NCBI RefSeq assembly: GCF_001888805.2
Contig: NZ_CP019113.1
Location: 1,381,972 to 1,405,971 of the forward strand
Reading direction: 5' to 3'
From: Enterobacter sp. SA187
GTDB lineage: Bacteria > Pseudomonadota > Gammaproteobacteria > Enterobacterales > Enterobacteriaceae
DNA length: 24,000 bases
Shown in pieces: positions 1,468 through 11,923 of this stretch (its first letter is position 1; each line of letters opens with the position of its first letter). The notes beneath the pieces were generated by a model. The model made no database searches and was not told the DNA's origin. It saw nothing but the letters and a program-made list of their open reading frames with translations. The position numbers and the translations under genes are program-made.

Positions 1468-2238
1468 ATGAAGTTAAAGCAGGTTATCCAGCGGCTAAAC
1501 ATTCCGGAGGCGAGCATTGAAAGCTTGCAGGAGCGACGGTACTGGTTGCAGTGCGAACGTGCTTATACTTATCAGCCGATCTACAAAACCGATGGCCATC
1601 TGATGGCGATTGAGGTCCTGACCATCGTCACGCATCCATCCGATCCCACACAACGCATTGCGCCCGATCGTTACTTCGCGGAAGTGGCGGTGCGTCAGCG
1701 TGTTGACGTGGTGGAGGAGCAGATCACGCTGCTCGCCCGTCAGCATGATTTTTTTATGCGGCACGGCATTCTGGCATCGGTGAACGTCGACGGGCCGACG
1801 CTGCTGGCGATGCGCCAGCATGAATCGTTGATCGATCTGATTAACACGCTGCCGTGGCTGCGTTTCGAGCTGGTGGAGCATATCCGCCTGCCGGATGACG
1901 TCTCCTTTGCGGCAATCTGTGAGATTTGCCCGCTGTGGCTGGATGATTTCGGCACCGGCATGGCCAACTTCTCGGCGCTGAGCGAAGTGCGTTACGACTA
2001 CATTAAAGTCGCCCGCGATCTGTTCATCATGCTGCGTCAGACCCCGGAAGGCCGCAATCTGTTCACGCAGTTGCTGCAACTGATGAACCACTATTGTCAG
2101 GGCGTGATCGTGGAAGGTATTGAAACGCTGGAAGAGTGGCGCGACGTACAGGCCTCCCCTGCGGCAGCGGCGCAGGGCTATTTCCTCTCCCGTCCGGTTC
2201 CACTGGAAAATCTGCATCGTGTGATCCTGGCCCTGTGA
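1468..2238 (+). CDS. pdeH: c-di-GMP phosphodiesterase, stand-alone EAL domain, 256 aa
   Basis: MKLKQVIQRLNIPEASIESLQERRYWLQCERAYTYQPIY... is collinear with the remembered E. coli YhjH/PdeH (255 aa). EAL-domain signatures are present (EVL variant of the EAL motif, DDFGTG, EGIET). The start is taken at ATG 1468 rather than the GTG at 1381, which would overlap the sigma28 promoter. Confidence 0.9.
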   Translation: MKLKQVIQRLNIPEASIESLQERRYWLQCERAYTYQPIYKTDGHLMAIEVLTIVTHPSDPTQRIAPDRYFAEVAVRQRVDVVEEQITLLARQHDFFMRHGILASVNVDGPTLLAMRQHESLIDLINTLPWLRFELVEHIRLPDDVSFAAICEICPLWLDDFGTGMANFSALSEVRYDYIKVARDLFIMLRQTPEGRNLFTQLLQLMNHYCQGVIVEGIETLEEWRDVQASPAAAAQGYFLSRPVPLENLHRVILAL

Positions 2239-2338
2239 TGCTGGCGGTAATATCCCGCTGATTACGCAGTCATTCTGCCCTTTTTGTCAGCCTCAGCTAT
2301 CTTTAAAAGAGGCAGGAAAAGACAGGAAGGAAGCAGGA

Positions 2339-4399
2339 ATGACTAAAACAGGCAAAATTATAACCGCCGTCATTGGAACCCTCGTATTGTTGATCGTCAT
2401 TGCGATCATCGTCATTGCGACATTTGACTGGAACCGGCTCAAGCCCACCATTAACGAAAAAGTCTCAACCGAGCTGAACCGTCCCTTTGCCATTCGCGGC
2501 GATCTTGGCGTGGTGTGGGAGCGCCAGAAACAGGAAACCGGCTGGCGCAGCTGGATCCCCTGGCCGCATGTGCACGCGGAAGACGTGGTACTCGGCAACC
2601 CTCCTGATATTCCTGCTGTCACCATGGTGCATTTGCCGCGCGTTGAAGCGACGCTCGCGCCGCTGGCGCTGCTCACCAAGACCGTTTACCTGCCGTGGAT
2701 CAAATTCCAGCAGCCGGACGCGAGGCTGATCCGCCTTTCGGAAAAAAACAATAACTGGACCTTCAATCTTGCCAGCGACGACAAGCCAAAAGATGAAAAC
2801 GCGCAGCCATCGTCGTGGTCATTCCAGCTGGACAACATTCTTTTCGATCGTGGCCGCATTGATATTGACGATAAGGTCAGCCGCGCGGACATTGAGATCC
2901 TTGTCGATCCGCTGGGCAAACCGCTGCCTTTCAGTGAAGTCACCGGATCGGATAAAGACAAAAACGCCAAAGTCGGCGACTACGTGTTCGGCCTGAAGGC
3001 CAAAGGACGCTACAACGGACAGCCGCTGACCGGCAGCGGTAAGATCGGCGGTATGCTGGCGCTGAAAAGCGAAGGCACGCCGTTCCCGGTGCAGGCGGAT
3101 TTCCGTTCCGGCAATACCCGCGTGGCTTTTGTCGGTACGGTGAGCGATCCGATGAAAATGGGCGGCGTCGATCTGAAACTGAAATTCGCCGGGGATTCCC
3201 TGGGCGAGCTGTACGATCTCACCGGCGTCCTGCTGCCGGACACCCCGCCGTTTGAAACCGACGGCCGTCTGGTGGCAAAAATCGACGCTGAAAAAACCTC
3301 GGTTTACGATTATCGCAACTTTAATGGTCGCATCGGCGACAGCGACATTCACGGCTCGCTGACTTACACCACCGGCAAACCGCGTCCGAAACTGGAAGGC
3401 GATCTGGAATCCCGCCAGCTGCGTCTGGCGGATCTGGGGCCGCTGATCGGGGTTGATACCGGTAAAGGCGCAGAGCAGTCAAAACGCTCGGAAGAGAAAA
3501 AAGGCGAGAAAACTAACCAGCCGGCGGGCAAAGTGCTGCCCTATGACCGCTTCGAAACCGACAAGTGGGACGTGATGGACGCCGATGTGCGCTTCAAAGG
3601 GCGTCGCATTGAGCACGGCAGTTCGCTGCCATTGAGCGATCTTTCCACGCATATCATCCTTAAAAACGCCGATCTGCGTTTGCAGCCGCTGAAGTTCGGC
3701 ATGGCGGGCGGCACCATCAATTCCAATATCCACCTGGAAGGCGATAAAAAGCCGATGCAGGGGCGGGCGGATATTCAGGCGCGTCGTCTGAAGCTGAAAG
3801 AGCTGATGCCGGATGTGGAGCTGATGCAGAAAACCATTGGCGAGATGAACGGCGACGCGGAATTCCGCGGCACCGGCAACTCCATCGCCGCGCTGCTCGG
3901 CACCAGCAACGGTAATCTCAAGCTGCTGATGAACGACGGCGTCATCAGCCGTAACCTGATGGAAATTCTCGGGCTGAACGTCGGTAACTTTATTGTCGGG
4001 CAGATCTTTGGCGACGACGAAGTGCGGGTGAACTGTGCGGCGGCGAACATGGATCTGGTTAACGGCGTGGCGCGCCCGAGTATTTTCGCCTTCGATACGG
4101 AAAACGCCATTATCAACGTTACCGGCACCGCCAGCATGGCGTCTGAACAGCTGGATCTGACCATCAATCCGGAAAGTAAGGGCATACGTATCGTCACGCT
4201 GCGATCGCCGCTGTACGTGCGCGGCTCGTTCAAAGATCCGCAGGCGGGCGTGAAGGCTGGTCCGCTGATCGCCCGTGGTGCGGTCGCCGCCGCGCTGGCC
4301 ACGCTGGTGACGCCAGCCGCTGCGCTGCTGGCGCTGATCTCCCCGTCGGAAGGTCAGGAAAACCAGTGCAGTAATATTCTTTCGCAGATGAAACGCTAA
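2339..4399 (+). CDS. yhjG: AsmA-family envelope protein, 686 aa, N-terminal transmembrane anchor
   Basis: It has the same length as E. coli YhjG (686 aa) and the same position next to pdeH. It has an N-terminal hydrophobic helix (IITAVIGTLVLLIVIAIIVIATF) followed by a long beta-rich soluble region. The purine-rich SD region ends in GCAGGA just before the ATG. Confidence 0.85.
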   Translation: MTKTGKIITAVIGTLVLLIVIAIIVIATFDWNRLKPTINEKVSTELNRPFAIRGDLGVVWERQKQETGWRSWIPWPHVHAEDVVLGNPPDIPAVTMVHLPRVEATLAPLALLTKTVYLPWIKFQQPDARLIRLSEKNNNWTFNLASDDKPKDENAQPSSWSFQLDNILFDRGRIDIDDKVSRADIEILVDPLGKPLPFSEVTGSDKDKNAKVGDYVFGLKAKGRYNGQPLTGSGKIGGMLALKSEGTPFPVQADFRSGNTRVAFVGTVSDPMKMGGVDLKLKFAGDSLGELYDLTGVLLPDTPPFETDGRLVAKIDAEKTSVYDYRNFNGRIGDSDIHGSLTYTTGKPRPKLEGDLESRQLRLADLGPLIGVDTGKGAEQSKRSEEKKGEKTNQPAGKVLPYDRFETDKWDVMDADVRFKGRRIEHGSSLPLSDLSTHIILKNADLRLQPLKFGMAGGTINSNIHLEGDKKPMQGRADIQARRLKLKELMPDVELMQKTIGEMNGDAEFRGTGNSIAALLGTSNGNLKLLMNDGVISRNLMEILGLNVGNFIVGQIFGDDEVRVNCAAANMDLVNGVARPSIFAFDTENAIINVTGTASMASEQLDLTINPESKGIRIVTLRSPLYVRGSFKDPQAGVKAGPLIARGAVAAALATLVTPAAALLALISPSEGQENQCSNILSQMKR

Positions 4400-4405
4400 G
4401 AAAGT

Positions 4406-4434
4406 CCCCTTTCCCGCCAGGGGAAGGGGTTATT
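4406..4434. terminator. Hairpin terminator between convergent yhjG and the DeoR-family gene
   Basis: CCCCTTTCCC (4406-4415) pairs with GGGGAAGGGG (4420-4429) around loop GCCA, giving a 10 bp stem with one wobble. TTATT follows on the + strand. The DeoR-gene stop codon (4430-4432) abuts the stem. Confidence 0.7.
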
Positions 4435-5188
4435 CGCGGCACAGCCATTGCGTTGCGCCCTGAGTAATGAGCGCCGATTGCCGCGGCGTCGGCGGTCGGT
4501 CGCTGACCACAAAATCGAAGTCTGACAGGGTGCCGTTCTGGCAGACGGCGGTGCGGCCAAACTTACTGCTGTCCACCACCAGCACGGTTAACGCCGCGCT
4601 CGCCACCAGCGCATGACGCGCGGCCACCTCATCATCGTTAAAATCGAACAGCTCCCCCGCGTCACTGAGTCCGCCAACGGATACCACGCCCATATCCACC
4701 CGGTAGCGGCTAAAAAAGGCCAGCGCATCGCCGCCAATCACATCTAAATCACGCTTACGAATTCGCCCCCCGGCAATTGTCAGCGCGCACTGTTCCCGCT
4801 GACTGAGCGGCAACGCGGCGTGCAGATTATTGGTGAACACCGCCAGACGGGAATCAGCGGGCAGCGCATGGGCCACCATTTCCACCGTTGTGCCGGTGCC
4901 AAGAAAACAGCTTTGCCAGCGGCTCAGCAGTTGCGCAGTGCGCTCGCCGATCCAGCGCTTACCGCTAATATTCACAATCTCCCGCTGCTGATAACCAATA
5001 TTTTCGCGCGCGAAAGGGGCGACCACACCGTGACGGCGCAGCAGCAAACCCTGCGAGGTGAGCGTGCGCAAATCGCTGCGTACCGTTTGCAGCGATACGC
5101 CAAAGTAGTGGGCCAGCTGTTCAATGCTGATTTCGCCGCGCCCGGTGACCAGTTCAACGATGGCAGTCCGGCGGATTTCTGGAGTCAT
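4430..5188 (-). CDS. DeoR-family transcriptional regulator (N-terminal wHTH plus C-terminal sugar-phosphate-binding DeoR-C domain), 252 aa
   Basis: The N-terminus has the typical DeoR HTH: RRTAIVELVTGRGEISIEQLAHYFGVSLQTVRSDLRTLTSQGLLLRRHGV. The start was moved to ATG 5188 because AAGGA lies 7 nt upstream. The longer track start (5218) has no SD. Confidence 0.85.
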   Translation of the reverse strand: MTPEIRRTAIVELVTGRGEISIEQLAHYFGVSLQTVRSDLRTLTSQGLLLRRHGVVAPFARENIGYQQREIVNISGKRWIGERTAQLLSRWQSCFLGTGTTVEMVAHALPADSRLAVFTNNLHAALPLSQREQCALTIAGGRIRKRDLDVIGGDALAFFSRYRVDMGVVSVGGLSDAGELFDFNDDEVAARHALVASAALTVLVVDSSKFGRTAVCQNGTLSDFDFVVSDRPPTPRQSALITQGATQWLCRE

Positions 5189-5230
5189 CTCACTTTCCTT
5201 CAATACGATTTCCCACAAGGTTACCGCGCC

Positions 5231-5244
5231 AATATGAAAATATT
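5231..5244. promoter_or_regulatory. Small palindrome AATAT-GAAA-ATATT in the divergent regulator/transporter intergenic region; possible operator overlapping a weak -10 (TATGAA 5233-5238, with TTCCCA 5210-5215 at 17 nt spacing)
   Basis: The inverted repeat was read directly. The promoter hexamers each match consensus at only 4 of 6 positions. No experimental or comparative support is available. Confidence 0.25.
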
Positions 5245-5322
5245 ACTACGAAAGGAGATGGTCATATTTTTGTCAGATTGGCCTGTTTTAATCATCACAA
5301 CGAAAACCGAGGGGAAACGGAA

Positions 5323-6300
5323 ATGAGTAAAAAATTAGCGCTGGCGGCCGTTGTACTGGCAACACTGAGCGGACAGGCACTGGCAAAAAGCACGCTCACG
5401 CTCTACACCAGCCAGCCGAGTGAAGACGCGCAAATGACGGTCAATGCGTTTGAGAAAGCGCACCCGGATATTGAAGTGAAATGGATCCGCGACGGAACCA
5501 CCAAACTGACCGCGCGCTTACAGGCGGAGATGGCGGCAGGCGGCGACGCGCCGGATGTGCTGCTCATCGCTGACAGTGTAACCATGGAATCCCTAAAGCA
5601 GCAGGATTTGCTGGCGGCCTATCACTCCCCGGAAGCCAGTCGCTATGACGCGCAGCTGTATGATAAAGCGGGCTTTTACTACGGCACCAAACTCATCACT
5701 ACCGGCATCGCTTATCACACCAAAGCGCCAGTCAAACCCTCATCCTGGCAGGATCTGCTGAAGCCGGAGCTGAAAAATATGACCACGCTGCCCAGCCCGC
5801 TTTACTCCGGCGCGGCGCAAATCCATATGGCCGCATTGATGAACACCCCGCAGCTGGGCTGGGCCTATTACGAAAAACTGAAAGCCAACGGCGCGATGCC
5901 GCAGAGCGGTAACGGGGCGGTGATGAGCGCCATCACCTCCGGCAACAAAGCCTACGGCGTGCTGGTGGATTACATGGCGATCCGCGAGAAAGCAAAAGGC
6001 GCGCCTATTGATTTCGTCTTCCCGTCGGAAGGCGTCAGCATGGTCACCGAGCCGGTGGCGGTGATGAAGAGCGCCAAAAATCCGCAGGCGGCGCACGCCT
6101 TTATTGATTTCGTTCTCTCCGACGCGGGGCAGCGACTGGTGCTGCAACAGGGCTATCTGCCTGCGGACGCCCGCCTGCCGGTACCCGCCGGTTTCCCGCC
6201 GCGCGACAGCATCAAACTGATGCCGTTCGATGCCGCCAGAGCGCTGGCCGACGCGGAGCCGAACAAAAAACGCTTCAGCGATCTGTTTGGCAGCAAATAA
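5323..6300 (+). CDS. Periplasmic substrate-binding protein of an Fbp/Afu/ThiB-type (PBP2, 'iron(III)-like') ABC importer, 325 aa, Sec signal peptide
   Basis: It starts MSKKLALAAVVLATLSGQALA|KSTL (signal peptide, AXA cleavage site, no lipobox Cys). GAGGGGA SD lies upstream. Length and overall composition are typical of the ferric/sugar-phosphate/thiamine SBP cluster. It is followed 3 nt later by the permease. The ligand cannot be assigned from sequence. Confidence 0.8.
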   Translation: MSKKLALAAVVLATLSGQALAKSTLTLYTSQPSEDAQMTVNAFEKAHPDIEVKWIRDGTTKLTARLQAEMAAGGDAPDVLLIADSVTMESLKQQDLLAAYHSPEASRYDAQLYDKAGFYYGTKLITTGIAYHTKAPVKPSSWQDLLKPELKNMTTLPSPLYSGAAQIHMAALMNTPQLGWAYYEKLKANGAMPQSGNGAVMSAITSGNKAYGVLVDYMAIREKAKGAPIDFVFPSEGVSMVTEPVAVMKSAKNPQAAHAFIDFVLSDAGQRLVLQQGYLPADARLPVPAGFPPRDSIKLMPFDAARALADAEPNKKRFSDLFGSK

Positions 6301-6303
6301 CCG

Positions 6304-8016
6304 ATGAGCATCATGACCCTTCGTCAACCGACCAGCAGCGGCCCGCCGAAAGGGCTGCTGTGGTTATTGCTGTGCATTGTGGCGCTGCTGAGCCTGTTGC
6401 CCAGCCTGCGTCTGTTAATGGCCGCGCTGCTGGACTGGCAGCAGGGCAGCAACAGCAGTTTAGGCCGCGTGCTGAGCAATCCATCGACCTGGACGGCGCT
6501 CTATAACAGCCTCTATACCAGCGGGCTTGGCACGCTGTTGTCGTTGCTGCTGGGCAGTCTGTTCGCCTTTTGTCTGGCGCTGACCAACATCCGCCTGAAA
6601 CAGATGTGGGTGTTCCTGTTTATGCTGCCGATGATGATCCCGCCGCAGGTGACGGCGCTCAGCTGGCTGCAACTCTTTGGCCCCGGCAGCATTCTGCTGA
6701 ACAGCATTGGCCTTGCGCCGTCGTTCGGCAGCCCGAATCCGCTCTATTCCGCCGAAGGTATCGCCCTGCTGCTGGGGATCCAGCATGCGCCTCTGGTCTT
6801 TCTGGCGCTGCGCACCCAGTTGCAGTGTCTGCCCAAAGAGCAGATCGAGGCCGCACGGCTGAACGGCGCGTCGCTGTGGCGCGTGTTCGTCGATATTGTG
6901 CTACCGCTGTGCCGCACCGCGCTGTGGGCGGGGGCGGCGATTGCCTTTGTTTCCGCGCTCGGCAACTTCGGCATTCCGGCGATGCTCGGTATTCCCATCT
7001 CGTATTTCGTACTGCCGATCCAGATTTACCAGACGCTCTCCAGCTTCGGCCCGTCAATGCTCAGTGACGTGGCGGCGCTGTCGGTGCTGATGGGCGTGCT
7101 GGCGATTGGCATTGTGTCCTTACAGGGCGTGATGCAGCGACGCCACGCGCTGCCGTTGATCGGCATGGCGGGGCGGTCGCTGGATTTCCAGCTGGGTAAA
7201 TGGCGGCTGGCGACGGAATCGCTGCTGGCGGTGGTGCTGTTCGCCATTTTGCTGCTGCCGCTGCTGGCGCTGATCGCCACCTCACTGGTGCCGACTCTCG
7301 GCGTACCGCTCAATAGCCAAACCCTGACGTTCGCCGCCTGGCATGCGATGTTCGATAACCAGAGCGCCACCTGGCGCGCGCTCACCAACAGTATGGTGCT
7401 GTCGGTTTCCGCCGCGCTGCTGCTGATGCTGATCGCCCTGCCGCTGGCCTGGCTGCTGGTGCGCTACGCCAGTCGCCCGCTGCGCTGGCTGCAAAACGCC
7501 ATCGATATTCCCTACACCCTGCCGGGCGTGGTGCTGGCGATCGCCATTATCCTGCTGTTCTCGCGCCCGCTGCCGCTGCTTAACGTCAGCCTCAGCGGTA
7601 CGCTGATGATCATCTTCATCGCCTATCTGGCGCGCTTTCTCACCGTCTGCCTGAAACCGGTGCATAACAGCATGCTGCAACTGGATCCGGCGATGGAGGA
7701 GGCCGCCAGCCTCGCCGGCGCGAATTTTTCCCAGCGTCTGCGCCATATTGTGCTGCCGTTGCTGGCCCCGGCCGCCTTTGCCGGCGCGCTGCTGGTCTTT
7801 CTCACCGCCGTGAATGAACTCACCGTTTCGGCGCTGCTGTGGAGCGCAGGCAAGGAGACCATCGGCGTGGTGATTTTCAACCTCGATGAGAGCGGCAATA
7901 AAGTGCTGGCGTCGGCGGTGTCGGTGCTGGTGGTGGCGCTGGTGACCTGTGTGATGTTGTTATTAAGCGGCCTGGGTCGCTATCTTCCCAAAGGAGTTAT
8001 CCCGTGGCAGAACTGA
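6304..8016 (+). CDS. ABC importer permease, fused double MetI-like domain (~12 TM), 570 aa
   Basis: It is highly hydrophobic. Two EAA-loop motifs are present (EQIEAARLNGASLWRVFVDIVLPL and AMEEAASLAGANFSQRLRHIVLPLL), as in the FbpB/AfuB/ThiP-type duplicated permeases. Confidence 0.85.
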   Translation: MSIMTLRQPTSSGPPKGLLWLLLCIVALLSLLPSLRLLMAALLDWQQGSNSSLGRVLSNPSTWTALYNSLYTSGLGTLLSLLLGSLFAFCLALTNIRLKQMWVFLFMLPMMIPPQVTALSWLQLFGPGSILLNSIGLAPSFGSPNPLYSAEGIALLLGIQHAPLVFLALRTQLQCLPKEQIEAARLNGASLWRVFVDIVLPLCRTALWAGAAIAFVSALGNFGIPAMLGIPISYFVLPIQIYQTLSSFGPSMLSDVAALSVLMGVLAIGIVSLQGVMQRRHALPLIGMAGRSLDFQLGKWRLATESLLAVVLFAILLLPLLALIATSLVPTLGVPLNSQTLTFAAWHAMFDNQSATWRALTNSMVLSVSAALLLMLIALPLAWLLVRYASRPLRWLQNAIDIPYTLPGVVLAIAIILLFSRPLPLLNVSLSGTLMIIFIAYLARFLTVCLKPVHNSMLQLDPAMEEAASLAGANFSQRLRHIVLPLLAPAAFAGALLVFLTAVNELTVSALLWSAGKETIGVVIFNLDESGNKVLASAVSVLVVALVTCVMLLLSGLGRYLPKGVIPWQN

Positions 8017-9032
8017 AACTGGAGGGGCTTGGCAAAACCTTCGGCGAACAGACCGTGGTTCGCGATCTGCACCTCACCATTCCGCAGGGGGCGTTTACGG
8101 CGTTGCTCGGGCCGAGCGGCTGCGGCAAAACCACGACGCTGCGTATTCTGGCCGGGCTTGAGCATCTGAGCCACGGGCGGTTATGGCTCGGCGATCGCCT
8201 GCTGGCGGATGAAAAAATCCATCTGCCGCCGGAGGTGCGCAACATGGGGATGGTGTTTCAGTCCTATGCCCTGTGGCCGCACATGACGGTGGCGGAAAAC
8301 GTGGGCTATCCGTTAAAGCTGAAAAAAGTGCAGGGCGCGGCGCGACAGAAACAGGTGATGGCGGCGCTGGAGGTGGTGGAGCTGGGCGCGTACGCCGACC
8401 GTTCCCCGCAGGCGTTAAGCGGCGGGCAGCGGCAACGGGTGGCGCTGGCGCGCTGTCTGGTGTCGGAGCCGCAGGTGGTGCTGCTTGATGAGCCGCTGGC
8501 TAACCTCGACCGGCATCTGCGCGCCACCATGGAGCAGACGTTCCGTGAATTTCATCGCCGTACCGGCGCGACCTTTGTCTATGTGACGCACGATCAGGCC
8601 GAAGCGATGGCGCTGGCAAGCCATATCGCGGTGATGCATAAAGGGGAGCTGATGCAGTGGGGCACGCCGCAGGGGCTGTATCAGCATCCGCACAGCGCCT
8701 GGGTGGCGCGTTTTATCGGCAAAGGCAGCGTGCTGGACGTCAGGGCGCAGGCTGATGACCGCCAGCTTAACGGCGGCGAATTGCACCGGGCATTAAGCGC
8801 CGGGGCCGCGGGGCTGTGTCAGCAGGTGCTGGTGCGCCCCGAGCATGTCGAAGTGGCGCAGGACGGCCTGCATGCTGAAGTGGAGAGCTGCATTTATCAG
8901 GGCGAGCGTTATCTGCTGGCGCTGCGTCTGGCGGACGGTCAGCAGCTGAGCGCGTTTCACCATTCGCCGCTGGATGTACAGCAGGCGGTGGCGGTGCGGC
9001 TGCATCAGGGCTGGCGTCTGGAGGCCGCGTGA
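8004..9032 (+). CDS. ABC transporter ATP-binding protein with C-terminal TOBE-like regulatory domain, 342 aa
   Basis: Walker A GPSGCGKTT, signature LSGGQRQR, Walker B VVLLDEP and H-loop YVTHD are all present. The GTG start at 8004 is preceded by AAGGAG (7991-7996). It overlaps the permease by 13 nt. Confidence 0.9.
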   Translation: MAELKLEGLGKTFGEQTVVRDLHLTIPQGAFTALLGPSGCGKTTTLRILAGLEHLSHGRLWLGDRLLADEKIHLPPEVRNMGMVFQSYALWPHMTVAENVGYPLKLKKVQGAARQKQVMAALEVVELGAYADRSPQALSGGQRQRVALARCLVSEPQVVLLDEPLANLDRHLRATMEQTFREFHRRTGATFVYVTHDQAEAMALASHIAVMHKGELMQWGTPQGLYQHPHSAWVARFIGKGSVLDVRAQADDRQLNGGELHRALSAGAAGLCQQVLVRPEHVEVAQDGLHAEVESCIYQGERYLLALRLADGQQLSAFHHSPLDVQQAVAVRLHQGWRLEAA

Positions 9033-10093
9033 ACTTTCGCATCGAGATCATCAGCGGACTTAACCAGAAAGCGCCCGCCGCCATTTTACTCAGCACGCCG
9101 TCGCAGCGCATTTTGCTGGATGCGGGCGGGGCGCTTGATACAGAGAGCGACGACTGGGCGGTGCCGGATAATCTGGATGCGGTATTGCTGAGTCACGATC
9201 ACATTGATCATATCGCCGGGCTGTGCCATCTGCCGCCGCACGTTCCGGTTTACTGTAGCGCGGTGACGGCCCGATCGCTGCCCGCGCACCGCTCTGTTCA
9301 GGTGATTGCGGTACGTGGTCAGTTCCGGCTTGGCGATCTTACCGTGACTACCGGCAGTTGCGGCCATGCCTATGGCGGCGTCTGGTTTCATTTCGATGTA
9401 CCGGGCGGTCTGTTTTACAGCGGCGATATCAGTATGGAGTCGGCGCTGTTTCGCTTCGATCCCCCGCCGCGCGCAGAGATTGCGCTGGTGGATGCCTCTT
9501 ACGGATTGTATGACACCCCGCAATCGCAGCAGCGCGCGCACGTTGCCGCGTATCTGCGTCAGCCGACTTTATGCCCGGTGCCGCCGTCAGGTCGCGCAGT
9601 GGAAATCGCGCTGCTTGAAGCGCAGGCTGGACGGCTGGCGATGACGCTGGACGACGACTGCCGGGCGATGCTGACGGCGATGGCAGAGTACGATGACGGC
9701 AGTTTACAGACCGGCGTGCAGGCAGGCTTACGCGCGCTGCGCCAGCAACTGCCGCCGTTTTCCGTGACCGCGCCGCTGATCCTCGCCGCCGATCCTGACG
9801 GACAAACCGGCATGGCCGGGGCATTACGCGCGCAGCCGGATTTTTATCATCGCACCCTTTTTACCGGCCACATGAACCCGCGCGCCCGCCAGCAGTGGCA
9901 GAGCGGCGAGGTGGACTTTTGCCGCTGGAACGTCCACCCGACGCGGCGCTGTCTGCAACGTCTGGTGATGATGCTCGGCTGTCATGCGCTGGCTCCGCTG
10001 TTTACGCCTCTGGACGATGTGTCGCGCTGGCAGCAGGCGCTGGGCTGCACCATCATCACCGACAGCACCATTGAGAGGGAAGTATGTCATTAA
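9029..10093 (+). CDS. Metallo-beta-lactamase-fold hydrolase with beta-CASP-like motif order, compact (354 aa)
   Basis: MBL motifs: LLDAG (motif 1), SHDHIDH (HxHxDH), GHAYGG (motif 3), YSGD (motif 4). Next come VDASYG (like beta-CASP motif A, ESTYG), CPVPPSGRAVEIALL (like LIPVFALGRAQELLL) and WNVHPTRRCLQRLV (like SAHADxxEL, motif B). The GTG start overlaps the ATPase stop (GTGA) and GGAGG lies 4 nt upstream. Confidence 0.75.
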   Translation: MNFRIEIISGLNQKAPAAILLSTPSQRILLDAGGALDTESDDWAVPDNLDAVLLSHDHIDHIAGLCHLPPHVPVYCSAVTARSLPAHRSVQVIAVRGQFRLGDLTVTTGSCGHAYGGVWFHFDVPGGLFYSGDISMESALFRFDPPPRAEIALVDASYGLYDTPQSQQRAHVAAYLRQPTLCPVPPSGRAVEIALLEAQAGRLAMTLDDDCRAMLTAMAEYDDGSLQTGVQAGLRALRQQLPPFSVTAPLILAADPDGQTGMAGALRAQPDFYHRTLFTGHMNPRARQQWQSGEVDFCRWNVHPTRRCLQRLVMMLGCHALAPLFTPLDDVSRWQQALGCTIITDSTIEREVCH

Positions 10094-10641
10094 TCTGTAA
10101 GCCGTTTGTGCTGGTGCGCCACGGCGAGACACCGCTTAATCTTGCACAGCGGATCGGGGGGCGCAGCGATGTGCCGCTGACCGCGCGCGGCGAAGAACAG
10201 GCGCGTGCCGCCTCGGCGCTGCTGATGCGCCAGCGCTGGAGTTGCATTGCCGTCAGCCCGTTGCTGCGCGCTCGTCGTACCGCTGAACTGGCGCTGCCGG
10301 GCCAGCCCCTGACCCTGGTCGACGATCTGCGGGAGCGGGACTGGGGTGACCTGGAAGGGATGCCCATTGCCTCGCAACCGCCCTATGAACAGACGCCGCC
10401 GCACGGCGAATCATGGCAGGCATTTTGCGATCGCGTCACCAGCGCGCTGAACCTTCTGCTTACCGCCCACGAGACGCCGCTGCTGGTGGCGCATTCCGGG
10501 ATCTTCCGGGTCATTAATCTGTATGCCACCGGCACGCCATACGGCGAACGTATGGGGAATGTTGTACCGATGTGGATCATGCCAGGCCTGCGGGCTGGCG
10601 AATGGGAAATTGTCCCGCTGGAGGAACGTTATGTCGTATGA
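10084..10641 (+). CDS. Histidine phosphatase superfamily branch 1 (phosphoglycerate-mutase-like / CobC-like), 185 aa
   Basis: Catalytic RHGE (VLVRHGETPLN), SPLLRARRTAE, an acidic residue in RERDWGDLEG, and a second His in VAHSG are present. It overlaps the MBL gene by 10 nt. GAGGGA SD is present. Confidence 0.85.
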   Translation: MSLICKPFVLVRHGETPLNLAQRIGGRSDVPLTARGEEQARAASALLMRQRWSCIAVSPLLRARRTAELALPGQPLTLVDDLRERDWGDLEGMPIASQPPYEQTPPHGESWQAFCDRVTSALNLLLTAHETPLLVAHSGIFRVINLYATGTPYGERMGNVVPMWIMPGLRAGEWEIVPLEERYVV

Positions 10642-11086
10642 AGAGTGCGTGATTGTCGATATTGACGGCACACTCGCCGAATTTGATGCAGAAGCTGTGC
10701 GTCAGTGGGTACTGGGCGAAGAGAAGCAGTGGCTGCCGTTTTTTGAACATATGGCCCAGGCGCTGCCAGGGGTGGCGGTAGCCCGTCTTGTTGGCATCCT
10801 CAGCGCTCAGCAGCAAAAAATCGTTATTTGCAGCGGACGCCCGGCCAGTTATCAGCACTACACGCAGACATGGCTGGAGCAGCACAGTATCCCGTTTGAT
10901 GCGCTCTATCTGCGGCCGGACGATGAAGATCATCTTGCTGATGAAGTGGTAAAAAAGCGCCTGTTGCAGCGCATTCGCGAGGATGGTTATCAGCCCTGGC
11001 TGGTGATCGATGACCGCCAGGCGGTGGTGGATTTCTGGCGGGCCGAAGGGCTGACCTGCCTGCAATGCGCGCCGGGGGATTTCTAG
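10631..11086 (+). CDS. Stand-alone HAD-superfamily phosphatase resembling the C-terminal 3'-phosphatase domain of phage T4 polynucleotide kinase/phosphatase, 151 aa
   Basis: HAD motif I is DIDGTLA, motif II ICSGR, motif IV VIDDR. The C-terminal IDDRQAVVDFWRAEGLTCLQCAPGDF closely parallels my recollection of the T4 Pnkp C-terminus ([26 protein letters not shown]). ATG 10631 has GGAGG 6 nt upstream and overlaps the preceding gene by 11 nt. I trimmed 36 codons from the track ORF. Confidence 0.75.
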   Translation: MSYEECVIVDIDGTLAEFDAEAVRQWVLGEEKQWLPFFEHMAQALPGVAVARLVGILSAQQQKIVICSGRPASYQHYTQTWLEQHSIPFDALYLRPDDEDHLADEVVKKRLLQRIREDGYQPWLVIDDRQAVVDFWRAEGLTCLQCAPGDF

Positions 11087-11089
11087 CTG

Positions 11090-11923
11090 TCAGGGGGCTT
11101 CCATTAACCGGCTGATGTGAATACTCAGCCAGGTCAGCTCATCCTTTGGCAGTGTGAGCTGATATTTTTCCTGCACATAGTCGCGGATCGCCCAGGCGAC
11201 GTTCATGGCGTCCGGGCGATGGCGCAGCAGTTCCTGATAGAAATCGTCGGTGTCACTGGCAGTGACGTTGCCGGCAATCAGCCGCTCGGCAAAGTAGCGC
11301 AGGTGGGTAATAAAACGGTTGTAGTTTACCGAGTTGATGTCGAGATTTTTATTGAGCTTATAGCGCACGATCTCCGCGATGCGGTTGACCAGTTCCACCT
11401 GCTGGTGGGCGCTGGCCTGATCGCTACTGCCCGTCGCGTTGATAATATGAAAAGCGATATTCACCGCCTCATCATCCGGCAGCGTGACGGCAAAGCGGGC
11501 GTTCACCTGCTGCATCGCCTGCTGGCCTAACAGATACTCTTTCTGATAATACCGCTTCACTTCCCAGCTGAGCTTGTTAAAAAACGGCTGATCTTTACGG
11601 CAGCGTTCTACGGCAAACCACAGGTGCTCGGCGAGGGTAAAGAACAGCACGGCGTTGAGCTTTTCCACATACGCCTGCTGGATCTGCGTGATGATGTCGT
11701 GGGTAAGCTCAAAAAAAGCCGCAGGAATGGTGTCCGTCAGCGATAAAAAGTGCCGGGATTTCAGATCCGCCAGCGGCAGGAAGATCTTTTCCACCTGCGC
11801 AATGTCGATAAGCTCGCCGGGTTTGCTGCCAAACCCGATGCCCTTACCGAACAGGATCATCTCCTGCTGGTCATAGTCGACCAGCAGCATACTGTTATTC
11901 AGCGACTTTTTTACTGTTATCAC
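11090..11923 (-). CDS. BglG/LicT-family transcriptional antiterminator (CAT RNA-binding domain plus two PRDs), ~277 aa
   Basis: The N-terminus (M)ITVKKSLNNSMLLVDYDQQEMILFGKGIGFG is a typical CAT domain. The remainder has PRD-like helical repeats with conserved His (FHIINA, ITHLRYF). GTG 11923 is preferred over the track TTG 11929 because AGGA lies 7 nt upstream of the GTG but only 1 nt from the TTG. Confidence 0.85.
   Translation of the reverse strand: MITVKKSLNNSMLLVDYDQQEMILFGKGIGFGSKPGELIDIAQVEKIFLPLADLKSRHFLSLTDTIPAAFFELTHDIITQIQQAYVEKLNAVLFFTLAEHLWFAVERCRKDQPFFNKLSWEVKRYYQKEYLLGQQAMQQVNARFAVTLPDDEAVNIAFHIINATGSSDQASAHQQVELVNRIAEIVRYKLNKNLDINSVNYNRFITHLRYFAERLIAGNVTASDTDDFYQELLRHRPDAMNVAWAIRDYVQEKYQLTLPKDELTWLSIHISRLMEAP

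Follow-up and report, generated by a model that had tools for sequence, protein, structure and literature searches.

A widely conserved, uncharacterised gene cassette of Enterobacter sp. SA187 as a probable phosphate-starvation system for organophosphate import and cleavage

In E. coli, the Pho-regulon member ugpBAEC-ugpQ imports glycerophosphodiesters and sn-glycerol-3-phosphate for phosphorus scavenging. Its Pho-box promoter is followed by genes for a substrate-binding protein (SBP), a permease, an ATPase and then a cytoplasmic phosphodiesterase. The Agrobacterium acc operon (AccR-AccABCDE-AccF-AccG), which is opine-specific and borne on the Ti plasmid, takes up and cleaves agrocinopines by means of a DeoR-type repressor, an ABC importer, and a phosphodiesterase and phosphatase for this sugar phosphodiester. 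Two further systems have SBPs of known structure, namely AfuABC, a hexose/heptose-phosphate importer (Sit et al., 2015; PMC4546632), and that of P5PA, a PLP binder (PMC8427247). The Afu and P5P operons contain neither hydrolases nor a DeoR gene. We know of no Pho box in either of them.

Here, we analysed a cassette within a 24,000-nucleotide stretch of the Enterobacter sp. SA187 genome (the window). The cassette is uncharacterised yet widely conserved among bacteria; its genes carry only generic names in the source annotation, and a literature search found no paper describing it, in line with a first-pass annotation that had not recognised the gene combination as a described pathway. Six plus-strand genes (5323–11086) encode an SBP of the AfuA/P5PA/PhnS2-related cluster D (5323–6300; SBP_bac_1/6/8/11), a fused double permease (6304–8016; two BPD_transp_1 domains), an ABC ATPase (8004–9032; ABC_tran and TOBE_2), a compact cytoplasmic beta-CASP metallo-hydrolase and putative phosphodiesterase (MBL protein; 9029–10093; 354 aa; Lactamase_B_2), a branch 1, CobC/PhoE-like histidine phosphatase (10084–10641; His_Phos_1) and a stand-alone PNKP-type HAD phosphatase (10631–11086; 151 aa). 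The last scores 102.9 bits with HAD_PNKP (PF25109; cut-off, 27.6 bits). A signal peptide is present on the SBP and on none of the enzymes. The genes are joined at +3, −13, −4, −10 and −11 nt, and a DeoR/GlpR-family repressor gene (4430–5188, minus strand; HTH_DeoR and DeoRC) is divergent from them, its 252 aa being counted from the ATG at 5188; the mechanical open reading frame reaches further, to a TTG at 5218. The coordinates and junctions are exactly those claimed in the first-pass annotation, and every domain predicted there was confirmed by Pfam. Its claim that each start has its own Shine-Dalgarno sequence held for five of the six operon starts, where a clear GGAG-type sequence is found, but not for the permease start (…ggcagcaaataaccgATG), which has no clear sequence of this type.

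The acc operon had previously been put forward as an architectural precedent. This stands as an analogy, although to our knowledge the two share no homologous component beyond the DeoR family, and ugpBAEC-ugpQ, which the cassette resembles in operon logic, is the closer functional precedent. Unlike ugpBAEC-ugpQ, the cassette has an SBP of the AfuA/PhnS2-like branch rather than UgpB, a single fused double permease, a beta-CASP MBL enzyme instead of a GDPD as the putative diesterase, dedicated phosphatases, and a proposed substrate-specific DeoR repressor layered on its Pho box.

We compared related loci of Alpha-, Beta- and Gammaproteobacteria, 85 in all, of which 73 (Alpha- and Gammaproteobacteria) were complete. 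The order SBP-permease-ATPase-MBL showed no variation across the set and was invariant in the 73 complete loci; all of these contain the MBL gene, 69 carry at least one phosphatase gene, and 56 a DeoR gene. The earlier expectation that the hydrolases co-travel with the transporter was therefore borne out, and no further gene family was co-conserved with the cassette among the loci compared. The same gene order and 13-nt permease/ATPase overlap occur in Marinomonas, Marinobacterium, Billgrantia and Phaeobacter, and the arrangement recurs in about 80 further loci, so that it is not due to chance.

The HAD phosphatase gene is present in 55 of the 73 complete loci and the histidine phosphatase gene in 47 (both, 33; HAD only, 22; histidine phosphatase only, 14; neither, 4). 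Because the two replace each other across genomes, one of them would suffice, and we regard them as interchangeable rather than as a fixed two-step pair. This refines the earlier proposal that the two phosphatases release inorganic phosphate. The lack of an adjacent phosphatase gene in four complete loci counts against the mechanism proposed below. The catalytic residues of both enzymes are invariant in orthologues (R12, H13, R62, E84 and H137 in the histidine phosphatase; D10xD12GT14, R70, K108 and D127-D128 in the HAD protein). In a PDB sequence search, the closest solved relatives of the HAD protein were Pnkp1 (4xrp) and the T4 PNK phosphatase domain (1ltq/5uj0), with which (5uj0) it aligns end to end, sharing the DxDGT, SGR and DD motifs. 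By sequence it is a T4-PNKP-type phosphatase, most similar to polynucleotide 3'-phosphatase domains, which confirms its first-pass description as T4-Pnkp-like. Unlike T4 Pnkp and Pnkp1, it has no kinase domain, lies outside an RNA-repair operon, and can be substituted by a histidine phosphatase across genomes.

An AlphaFold model of the MBL protein, with a pLDDT of 94.5, was used for a Foldseek search, which returned Ysh1, CPSF73, IntS11, aCPSF1, TTHA0252 and RNase J with TMq values of 0.75–0.82. In this model, the protein has a compact two-domain beta-CASP fold with a full set of metal ligands, which confirms the first-pass label 'beta-CASP-like'. In the HxHxDH motif (56–61), H56, D57 and H58 are at least 90% conserved and D60 and H61 invariant, as are H113, D133, D155 and H303. 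MBL motifs 1–4 and motifs A (D155) and C (H303) of the beta-CASP ribonucleases are retained, with TGH/TGY in the place of motif B. Identity to these ribonucleases is only 13–19%, the protein is shorter (354 aa versus 430–640 aa), and, unlike them, it escapes the Pfam Beta-Casp and RMMBL models. Every beta-CASP enzyme known to us has a nucleic-acid polymer as its substrate, so that a small-molecule substrate would be without precedent, which counts against the mechanism proposed below. The position of the MBL gene in an importer operon under apparent Pho control argues for a small imported substrate, not cellular RNA. In Alcaligenes, an MBL homologue stands by itself, preceded by a terminator and a triple Pho box, and converges on a gene for a third phosphatase type, Y_phosphatase3, which has its own Pho-box-like site.

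AfuA and P5PA are the nearest solved relatives of the SBP, at low sequence identity (best profile match E = 1e-25 to 1e-27), and the associated transporters share the fused permease and TOBE ATPase. The phosphate site, formed by helix N-termini with Ser/Thr/Gly, is kept (S37/G38 corresponding to T59/T60, and S148-G149 to S162-G163), together with the Asp that binds sugar hydroxyls (D206 in AfuA, D216 in the SBP). Unlike in AfuA, H205 is replaced by Val, Y103 by Leu and T60 by D84, and the invariant K123 and N197 are new. D84, D216 and E243 are invariant acidic residues. SBP orthologues share 55–75% identity between proteobacterial classes, and such extreme conservation points to a single defined ligand, not to a set of four nucleotides.

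A Pho-box-like site (TGGTCATATTTTTGTCAG; 5259–5276, plus strand) lies at the −35 position upstream of the SBP gene, followed after 10 nt by a −10-like hexamer, TTTAAT, read from the sequence (5287–5292, plus strand). Two putative DeoR operators, direct-repeat copies spaced by 52 nt, flank these elements: O1 (ATTACTACGAAA; 5242–5253, plus strand) 5 nt upstream of the Pho-box-like site, and O2 (ATCACAACGAAA; 5294–5305, plus strand) directly downstream of the −10. The site matches CTGTCAT-N4-CTGTCAT at 10 of 14 positions, which is not significant for the SA187 window alone, and the case rests on comparison between loci, many of them related. In nearly all alpha- and gammaproteobacterial loci, the element precedes the SBP start by 63–96 nt and has the same orientation; it is perfect in one locus (L072) and kept where DeoR has been lost. 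By chance, at least 10/14 matches would be met in a 40-nt span with a frequency of 1.3%. Of 56 intergenic regions, 26 have a T....T hexamer (at least 4/6 matches) exactly 10 nt past the box. No canonical −35/−10 promoter was found, as would be the case if transcription depends on an activator. In the 59 DeoR-containing intergenic regions, ACGAAA is found 120 times (12.95/kb against a background of 0.31/kb, 42-fold), but almost never in loci without DeoR; 46 copies, over 56 regions, fall in the bin immediately upstream of the Pho box. The O2 position (+40 bin) is seen in Enterobacterales, and in the DeoR-less locus L006 O2 has decayed to ATTGAAA. Together, the Pho-box-like site and the ACGAAA repeats tied to DeoR would imply dual control by PhoB and DeoR, and the conserved Pho-box-like element makes phosphorus scavenging, not carbon catabolism, the likely role. 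This element had been missed in the first-pass annotation and was added by the comparative analysis.

We propose that, under phosphate starvation, the cassette takes in a small organophosphate for intracellular cleavage. The analysis supports the earlier reading of the locus as an organophosphate uptake-and-cleavage system, all computational tests suggested with that reading having come out in favour of it. In the periplasm, the secreted SBP would bind a small phosphorylated ligand, which the fused permease and ATPase would bring in intact. In the cytoplasm, the beta-CASP di-metal hydrolase would cut a phosphodiester or cyclic phosphate bond, yielding a phosphomonoester. Inorganic phosphate would then be freed from this product by the histidine phosphatase or the PNKP-type HAD phosphatase, either being enough. 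Transcription would require two conditions: low phosphate, under which PhoB would activate from the Pho box, and release of the DeoR repressor from its ACGAAA operators by the substrate or monoester product. We assign a probability of about 0.68 to this general mechanism, not to any substrate class. It draws on the invariant transporter-MBL order with no other co-conserved family, the interchangeable phosphatases with invariant catalytic residues, the fixed distance of the Pho-box-like site with its −10-like hexamer and abutting ACGAAA, the Pho-box-type sites of both Alcaligenes genes, the beta-CASP fold and polynucleotide 3'-phosphatase-like HAD protein, and the phosphate-binding elements and sugar-hydroxyl Asp of the SBP, which has a signal peptide where the enzymes lack one.

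Database names ('iron(III) transport system', 'iron ABC transporter permease') and sequence similarity to FbpA/HitA/SfuA would suggest an FbpABC/AfuABC-type ferric-iron uptake system. This candidate is effectively refuted: the SBP lacks the FbpA ligand set, with P32, A83, (Y or F)217 and (M or L)218 aligned to the iron ligands H9, E57, Y195 and Y196, and no Fur box was better than in shuffled sequence. Moreover, the ligands of the nearest solved SBP relatives are sugar phosphates or PLP, not iron, and an iron importer would have no use for three hydrolases. Import of 2-aminoethylphosphonate is very unlikely; PhnS2, PhnU2 and PhnT2 are the best NCBIfam matches of all three transporter parts, but their scores lie far below the curated cut-offs (155/393, 178/593 and 304/458 bits, respectively), genes for PhnW, PhnX, PhnA or C-P lyase are not co-conserved, and the cassette enzymes would hydrolyse P-O rather than C-P bonds. 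There is equally little to recommend the view of the beta-CASP protein as an ordinary RNase of RNA processing whose gene lies downstream of a transporter by accident. Its structural neighbours are all RNases and one source names a homologue 'Ribonuclease'; however, its linkage to the transporter is invariant across three proteobacterial classes, plasmids included, with overlapping genes (4 nt in SA187), its family is very small, with 71 clusters at E≤1e-30 in a set of 1.84 billion representatives, and absent from E. coli, and its Pho box persists where it stands alone. A carbon-source sugar-phosphate importer resembling AfuABC, with DeoR as the sole relevant regulator, hydrolases that only trim and phosphorus status irrelevant, is improbable. 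DeoR-family regulators usually sense sugar phosphates, and the SBP is related to the hexose-6-phosphate binder AfuA, but the sugar-binding H205 of AfuA is lost, as is Y103, the Pho-box-like element outlasts DeoR, no carbon-skeleton catabolic enzymes are co-conserved, and an invariant di-metal diesterase would be needless for monoester import.

Within the phosphate-starvation mechanism, we tentatively favour an RNA-derived nucleotide with a 2',3'-cyclic or 3'-phosphate, or another small nucleotide diester; oligonucleotides are disfavoured because the SBP family binds small ligands. A less likely but serious possibility is that the same machine and regulation serve a phosphodiester or cyclic phosphate that comes from lipids or sugars. 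Examples would be glycerophosphoethanolamine, -choline, -glycerol or -inositol, the 1,2-cyclic phosphate of glycerol or inositol, and a sugar diester resembling the agrocinopines. The DeoR effector would then be the monoester product, such as glycerol phosphate. The best full-length NCBIfam matches of the DeoR protein are GlpR-type models, all under cut-off, and with the aminoethylphosphonate-type transporter models they would suit a lipid-headgroup diester no less than a nucleotide, if not better. The single defined ligand suggested by SBP conservation points the same way, as do D84, D216 and E243, possible contacts for an amine or for vicinal hydroxyls, with D216 in the place of the sugar-binding Asp of AfuA. 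UlaG, an RNase-like MBL enzyme with a DeoR-family regulator, reportedly acts on a sugar phosphate. Against a lipid or sugar substrate, Ugp/UgpQ already serve glycerophosphodiesters in enterobacteria and the cassette has no GDPD-type enzyme, whereas the MBL fold specifically matches beta-CASP RNases and the HAD protein resembles PNKP-type 3'-phosphatases.

All seven genes of the cassette, which the first-pass annotation had read as an importer of a phosphorylated compound with three hydrolases under a DeoR-family regulator, were recovered as open reading frames with the boundaries and junctions it had described. On the + strand, the genes for the periplasmic substrate-binding protein (SBP; 5323–6300), the fused double permease (6304–8016), the ATPase (8004–9032), a compact metallo-hydrolase (MBL; 9029–10093), a histidine phosphatase (10084–10641) and a HAD phosphatase (10631–11086) follow one another with gaps of +3, −13, −4, −10 and −11 nt, and the DeoR gene (4430–5188, − strand) diverges from them. 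SBP carries a signal peptide; MBL and both phosphatases do not. The claim that each start has its own Shine–Dalgarno sequence held for five of the six + strand starts (clear GGAG-type) and failed for the permease start. The domains detected by Pfam and NCBIfam searches are precisely those predicted. Identical proteins are recorded for Enterobacter sp. SA187 (WP_072571486/488/489/490), with generic annotation only.

An AlphaFold2 model of MBL, built from 46 homologues, had a mean pLDDT of 94.5. When this model was compared with the PDB using Foldseek, the best 50 matches were all beta-CASP proteins (TMq up to 0.82, probability 1.00, identity 11–19%), bearing out the earlier beta-CASP-like call; the structural neighbours include Ysh1/CPSF73, IntS11, archaeal CPSF1, TTHA0252, RNase J and Cas14. 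The modelled fold is an MBL domain with an inserted beta-CASP domain. Residues D31, D60, H61, H113, D133, D155 and H303 are invariant in the alignment, and H56, D57 and H58 are kept in at least 90% of it. By comparison with the published definitions of MBL motifs 1–4 and of beta-CASP motifs A (Asp/Glu), B (His) and C (His/Val), the MBL motifs were placed at D31, H56xH58xD60H61, H113 and D133, motif A at D155 in 'DASYG' and motif C at H303 in 'WNVH'; at the place of motif B, an invariant T279–G280 is followed by His281 in the window and by Tyr in some orthologues. MBL escaped the Beta-Casp and RMMBL models of Pfam and was recognised only by Lactamase_B_2, Lactamase_B and Lactamase_B_6. At 354 aa the protein is far shorter than known beta-CASP enzymes, and its family is small and discrete: of 1.84 billion representatives searched, 71 clusters match at E ≤ 1e-30 and 146 at E ≤ 1e-10. 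Judged by the model, the diesterase belongs structurally to the beta-CASP group and is atypical there in size and context: it resembles the beta-CASP nucleases in fold and differs from them in its small size and importer-operon setting. A UlaG-type lactonase is an unlikely identity for MBL, as there is no NCBIfam UlaG match, UlaG is absent from the best 50 structural neighbours and the di-metal ligands are fully conserved. Weak precomputed Anti-Pycsar_Apyc1 matches occur in homologues; a role in anti-phage defence or signal-nucleotide degradation was rejected, as PADLOC gave HTH similarity only and MBL misses PF23023 at E ≤ 0.01.

The HAD phosphatase scored 102.9 bits against PF25109 (HAD_PNKP; gathering threshold 27.6), and its nearest solved relatives are Pnkp1 (4xrp) and the phosphatase domain of T4 polynucleotide kinase (5uj0, 1ltq), as the label 'T4-Pnkp-like' had anticipated. 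Its invariant motifs are D10xD12GT14 (DxDGT), R70, K108 and D127–D128. The histidine phosphatase belongs to branch 1 (129.6 bits vs 21.7) and is CobC/PhoE-like, with invariant R12, H13, R62, E84 and H137 forming the RHG motif, the second Arg/His and the acid Glu.

Orthologues of SBP share 55–75% identity across proteobacterial classes and the enzymes are less conserved, which suggests that SBP has one defined ligand. Its nearest solved relatives are 8x1a, the sugar phosphate binder AfuA and the pyridoxal phosphate binder P5PA, the ligand residues of the latter two being named in their papers (PMC4546632, PMC8427247). The elements of the AfuA/P5PA phosphate site are kept in SBP, with S37/G38 corresponding to T59/T60 and S148-G149-T150 to S162-G163-A164, and the sugar-binding D206 of AfuA corresponds to the invariant D216. 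Other positions are changed (H205 to V215, Y103 to L, T60 to the invariant D84), and AfuA E229 aligns with V241, two residues before the invariant E243. In this alignment, SBP is related to AfuA and P5PA and different at the ligand-specifying positions.

Ferric-iron uptake, in the form of FbpA-type Tyr/Tyr/His/Glu ligands together with iron/Fur control, had been named in advance as one finding that would count against the first-pass annotation. In a profile alignment with H. influenzae FbpA, the iron ligands were not conserved in SBP: H9 is replaced by P32, E57 by A83 and Y196 by M/L218, and Y195 corresponds to Y/F217. In length and in the range aligned, the FbpA sequence used is consistent with the 1mrp/1d9v match. 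Iron control was addressed by sequence, and the best matches to the 19-bp Fur-box consensus in nine intergenic regions were no better than those in shuffled sequence. With the FbpA ligands lost and no Fur box found, ferric-iron transport is excluded as far as sequence goes. Among NCBIfam models, the transporter is matched best by those for 2-aminoethylphosphonate import, PhnS2/PhnT2/PhnU2 (TIGR03261/03265/03262). This function was also rejected, since the scores fall far under the equivalog cut-offs (155 vs 393, 304 vs 458 and 178 vs 593 bits) and neither PhnW, PhnX, PhnA nor another C–P-cleaving family is co-conserved with the cassette in 85 related loci fetched for comparison. The ugpBAEC-ugpQ system follows the same logic with other protein families: SBP is not UgpB-type, the diesterase is not a GDPD-family UgpQ, the sole likeness is that of the cassette ATPase to UgpC (305 bits vs a cut-off of 432), and the cassette adds a DeoR gate. 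The likeness is thus functional and not one of membership. Because their defining features were looked for and are lacking, the cassette falls outside the ferric, PhnS2 and Ugp families.

Homologues of MBL were found in Enterobacterales, Marinomonas, Marinobacterium, Halomonadaceae, Nitrincola, Vibrio/Photobacterium, Pseudomonas, Wohlfahrtiimonas, Alcaligenes, Rhodobacteraceae, Thalassospira, Devosia and Maritalea. Wherever the transporter is present among the 85 loci, the order SBP-permease-ATPase-MBL is constant, so that the expected co-conservation of hydrolase and transporter was upheld for MBL, and distant genera repeat the overlapping gene junctions. Clustering of all ORFs in these loci left the seven cassette families as the sole ones common across lineages and yielded no additional co-conserved gene hinting at a substrate. 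Phosphatase content varies among the 73 complete transporter loci (both in 33, HAD only in 22, histidine phosphatase only in 14, neither in 4), and for this reason the two enzymes look interchangeable and not like two obligatory steps; the fixed pair proposed in the first-pass annotation did not survive the comparison. The DeoR gene is present in 56 of the 73. In four loci of Billgrantia and Halomonas sp. A29 (L004/L005, L043, L045), a co-directional yjdM/phnA-like zinc-ribbon gene, recognised by Pfam in L004/L005 and by similar upstream sequence in L043/L045, takes the place of DeoR; here the Pho box lies between this gene and the SBP gene, and HAD is absent. No match to the cassette was found in E. 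coli among 5,426 complete genomes.

Extrachromosomal replicons of Phaeobacter inhibens, Paracoccus, Azospirillum and E. hormaechei also carry the cassette. All seven genes are present on the P. inhibens plasmid (L086), and a plasmid-borne seven-gene cassette occurs in 27 Phaeobacter records; in Azospirillum brasilense and Paracoccus it lies on large replicons. The Enterobacter hormaechei plasmid p48880_VIM_4 (L087; NZ_CP059418.1), a conjugative IncF plasmid named for VIM-4 and coming from a clinical isolate, has a five-gene version at 1886–8610, from SBP to histidine phosphatase, without DeoR and HAD and adjoining an IS5/ISKpn26 transposase. Transposon-fitness data have been published for P. 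inhibens and A. brasilense.

PhoB-activated promoters carry two 7-bp CTGTCAT repeats with 11-bp phasing, which replace the −35 element and lie about 10 bp upstream of the −10. No canonical sigma-70 promoter was found in the 134-nt DeoR–SBP intergenic region. This region holds a Pho-box-like site (TGGTCATATTTTTGTCAG, 5259–5276; 10/14 against CTGTCAT-N4-CTGTCAT) with a −10-like TTTAAT (5287–5292) 10 nt past it, and the phasing and −10 distance of this site agree with those of a Pho promoter. Taken alone, this match is not significant. Across the comparison set of 59 loci with DeoR (the window included) and about 18 without it, the best match scores 9–14/14 in the same orientation and lies, in nearly all cases, 63–96 nt upstream of the SBP start; a 40-nt span would reach 10/14 or better by background chance in 1.3% of loci. 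The position is kept in Alpha- and Gammaproteobacteria with otherwise unalignable intergenic sequence, examples being CTGTCATTTAGCTGTCAT in Maritalea, GTGTCACGAAGCTGTCAT in Pseudodonghicola and CTGTCACCTCACCGTCAT in Devosia. Both the P. inhibens and the E. hormaechei plasmid carry the site too, the latter at 12/14.

The same intergenic region of the window contains two copies of an ACGAAA repeat (ATTACTACGAAA, 5242–5253; ATCACAACGAAA, 5294–5305) as putative DeoR operators. The 59 DeoR-containing intergenic regions hold 120 copies of ACGAAA, or 12.95/kb vs 0.31/kb in the background, placed directly upstream of the Pho box, then at intervals of about 20 nt farther upstream and, in Enterobacterales, also just past the −10. 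In DeoR-less loci ACGAAA is essentially missing and the Pho box is retained; in one of these loci (L006), decay has turned the two copies into ACGGAAA and ATTGAAA. We infer that the repeats are DeoR operators interleaved with a PhoB-dependent promoter, in which case expression would need both low phosphate and an inducer. The phosphorus-limitation proteome table of Phaeobacter sp. MED193 listed no recognisable cassette member (PMC10132767). An 11/14 match to the Pho-box consensus inside the operon, ATGTCATTAATCTGTAAG at the histidine phosphatase start codon (10084–10101), lies in coding sequence and is probably due to chance.

Three loci (L049, L054, L056) have a stand-alone MBL homologue. In Alcaligenes this protein is 44% identical, without a signal peptide or an adjacent ABC transporter, and its gene is convergent with a Y_phosphatase3 gene, a third phosphatase type. 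In Alcaligenes phenolicus (L049; 9690–9760 and 11893–11910), the MBL gene is preceded by a terminator and a triple, correctly phased Pho box, CTGCCATCGAACTGCCATAAAACTGTAAC, and the Y_phosphatase3 gene has its own Pho-box-like site, CTGTCACCGCATTGTCAT. A 'Gate/nucleoside-recognition' membrane protein and a NIF3-like gene were ruled out as an alternative transporter, as the terminator and a separate Pho box intervene before the MBL gene.

The best-supported reading of these sequences is that the cassette is a phosphorus-scavenging import-and-cleavage system. SBP would capture a small phosphorylated ligand, the ABC transporter would bring it in, the beta-CASP enzyme would cleave a diester or cyclic phosphate, and phosphate would be freed by whichever phosphatase the locus carries. 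Such a system would explain why the gene set is self-contained and without carbon-catabolic enzymes, and would account for the Pho control and for the enzymes being cytoplasmic. It would also explain the interchangeable phosphatases and the third family in Alcaligenes. We class the cassette with the known general kind of ABC importer that takes up organophosphates under Pho control and works with a cytoplasmic diesterase; the proposed Pho-box/ACGAAA regulation is newly recognised here. In agreement with the earlier impression that this is not a described pathway, the literature searched, including reviews and proteome papers, yielded no description of the cassette.

For the substrate, we give a nucleotide-derived diester (2',3'-cNMP, 3',5'-cNMP or very short 3'-phosphorylated oligonucleotides) a probability of about 0.4. 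The structural neighbours of the diesterase are all RNases, HAD is of the polynucleotide-3'-phosphatase type, the histidine phosphatase resembles a ribazole-phosphate (nucleotide-like) phosphatase, and dead-end 3'-nucleotides need dephosphorylation before use. A lipid- or sugar-derived diester is a somewhat less likely candidate to which other parts of the cassette point: the DeoR protein is GlpR-like, the closest models of the transporter are of the aminoethylphosphonate type, and the extremely conserved SBP has a pocket with invariant acidic residues and comes from a family known for small ligands. Marine bacterial cAMP uptake is said, in the work of Ammerman and Azam, to be of high affinity, and we know of no transporter ever identified for it. 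We consider it improbable that the cassette is the first SBP-dependent importer of a free nucleotide diester (2',3'-cyclic NMPs or 3',5'-cAMP), with the first beta-CASP enzyme acting on a small imported molecule and not on RNA/DNA polymers; in the marine carriers (Marinomonas, Halomonadaceae, Thalassospira and Roseobacters), it could then underlie the specific cAMP uptake reported by Ammerman and Azam in 1981–82, as cited in PMC4103542. Its interest would be much higher if the substrate were a free nucleotide diester.

In soils and oceans, dissolved organic phosphorus, much of it diester, makes up a major store of the element, and to our knowledge few routes of direct organic-phosphorus uptake have been described (Ugp, Phn/Aep, Uhp/Glp). 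To these the cassette would add one that is self-contained and horizontally mobile, carried by plant-associated Enterobacterales, many marine heterotrophs, Roseobacter/Azospirillum replicons and a conjugative clinical plasmid. The beta-CASP fold is thought to be dedicated to RNA and DNA processing, and the cassette would put such an enzyme into small-molecule nutrient metabolism. Its proposed regulation would be a clean example of an AND gate, in which PhoB activation and substrate-specific DeoR derepression act through interleaved sites.

In the window, the cassette is bounded by an AsmA-family gene and by a convergent bglG/bglB/PTS operon, past which lie the core genes DLH-udp-rmuC-ubiE-ubiJ-ubiB-tatC. 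Its G+C content (0.60–0.655 at 4500–11000) clearly exceeds the values for the core genes on either side (0.53–0.58), which suggests that it was gained horizontally. An Rfam search of the window returned no RNA family. Two long ORFs overlap at 1381–2238, one on the + strand (1381–2238, 285 aa) and one on the − strand (1495–2217, 240 aa), the latter without a Pfam match at E ≤ 1e-5. Only 3 nt separate the HAD stop (11086) from that of a BglG/LicT-type antiterminator gene running convergently (11090). As no terminator-like structure was found between the two genes (11086–11090), the cassette and the bgl-like operon may transcribe into each other.
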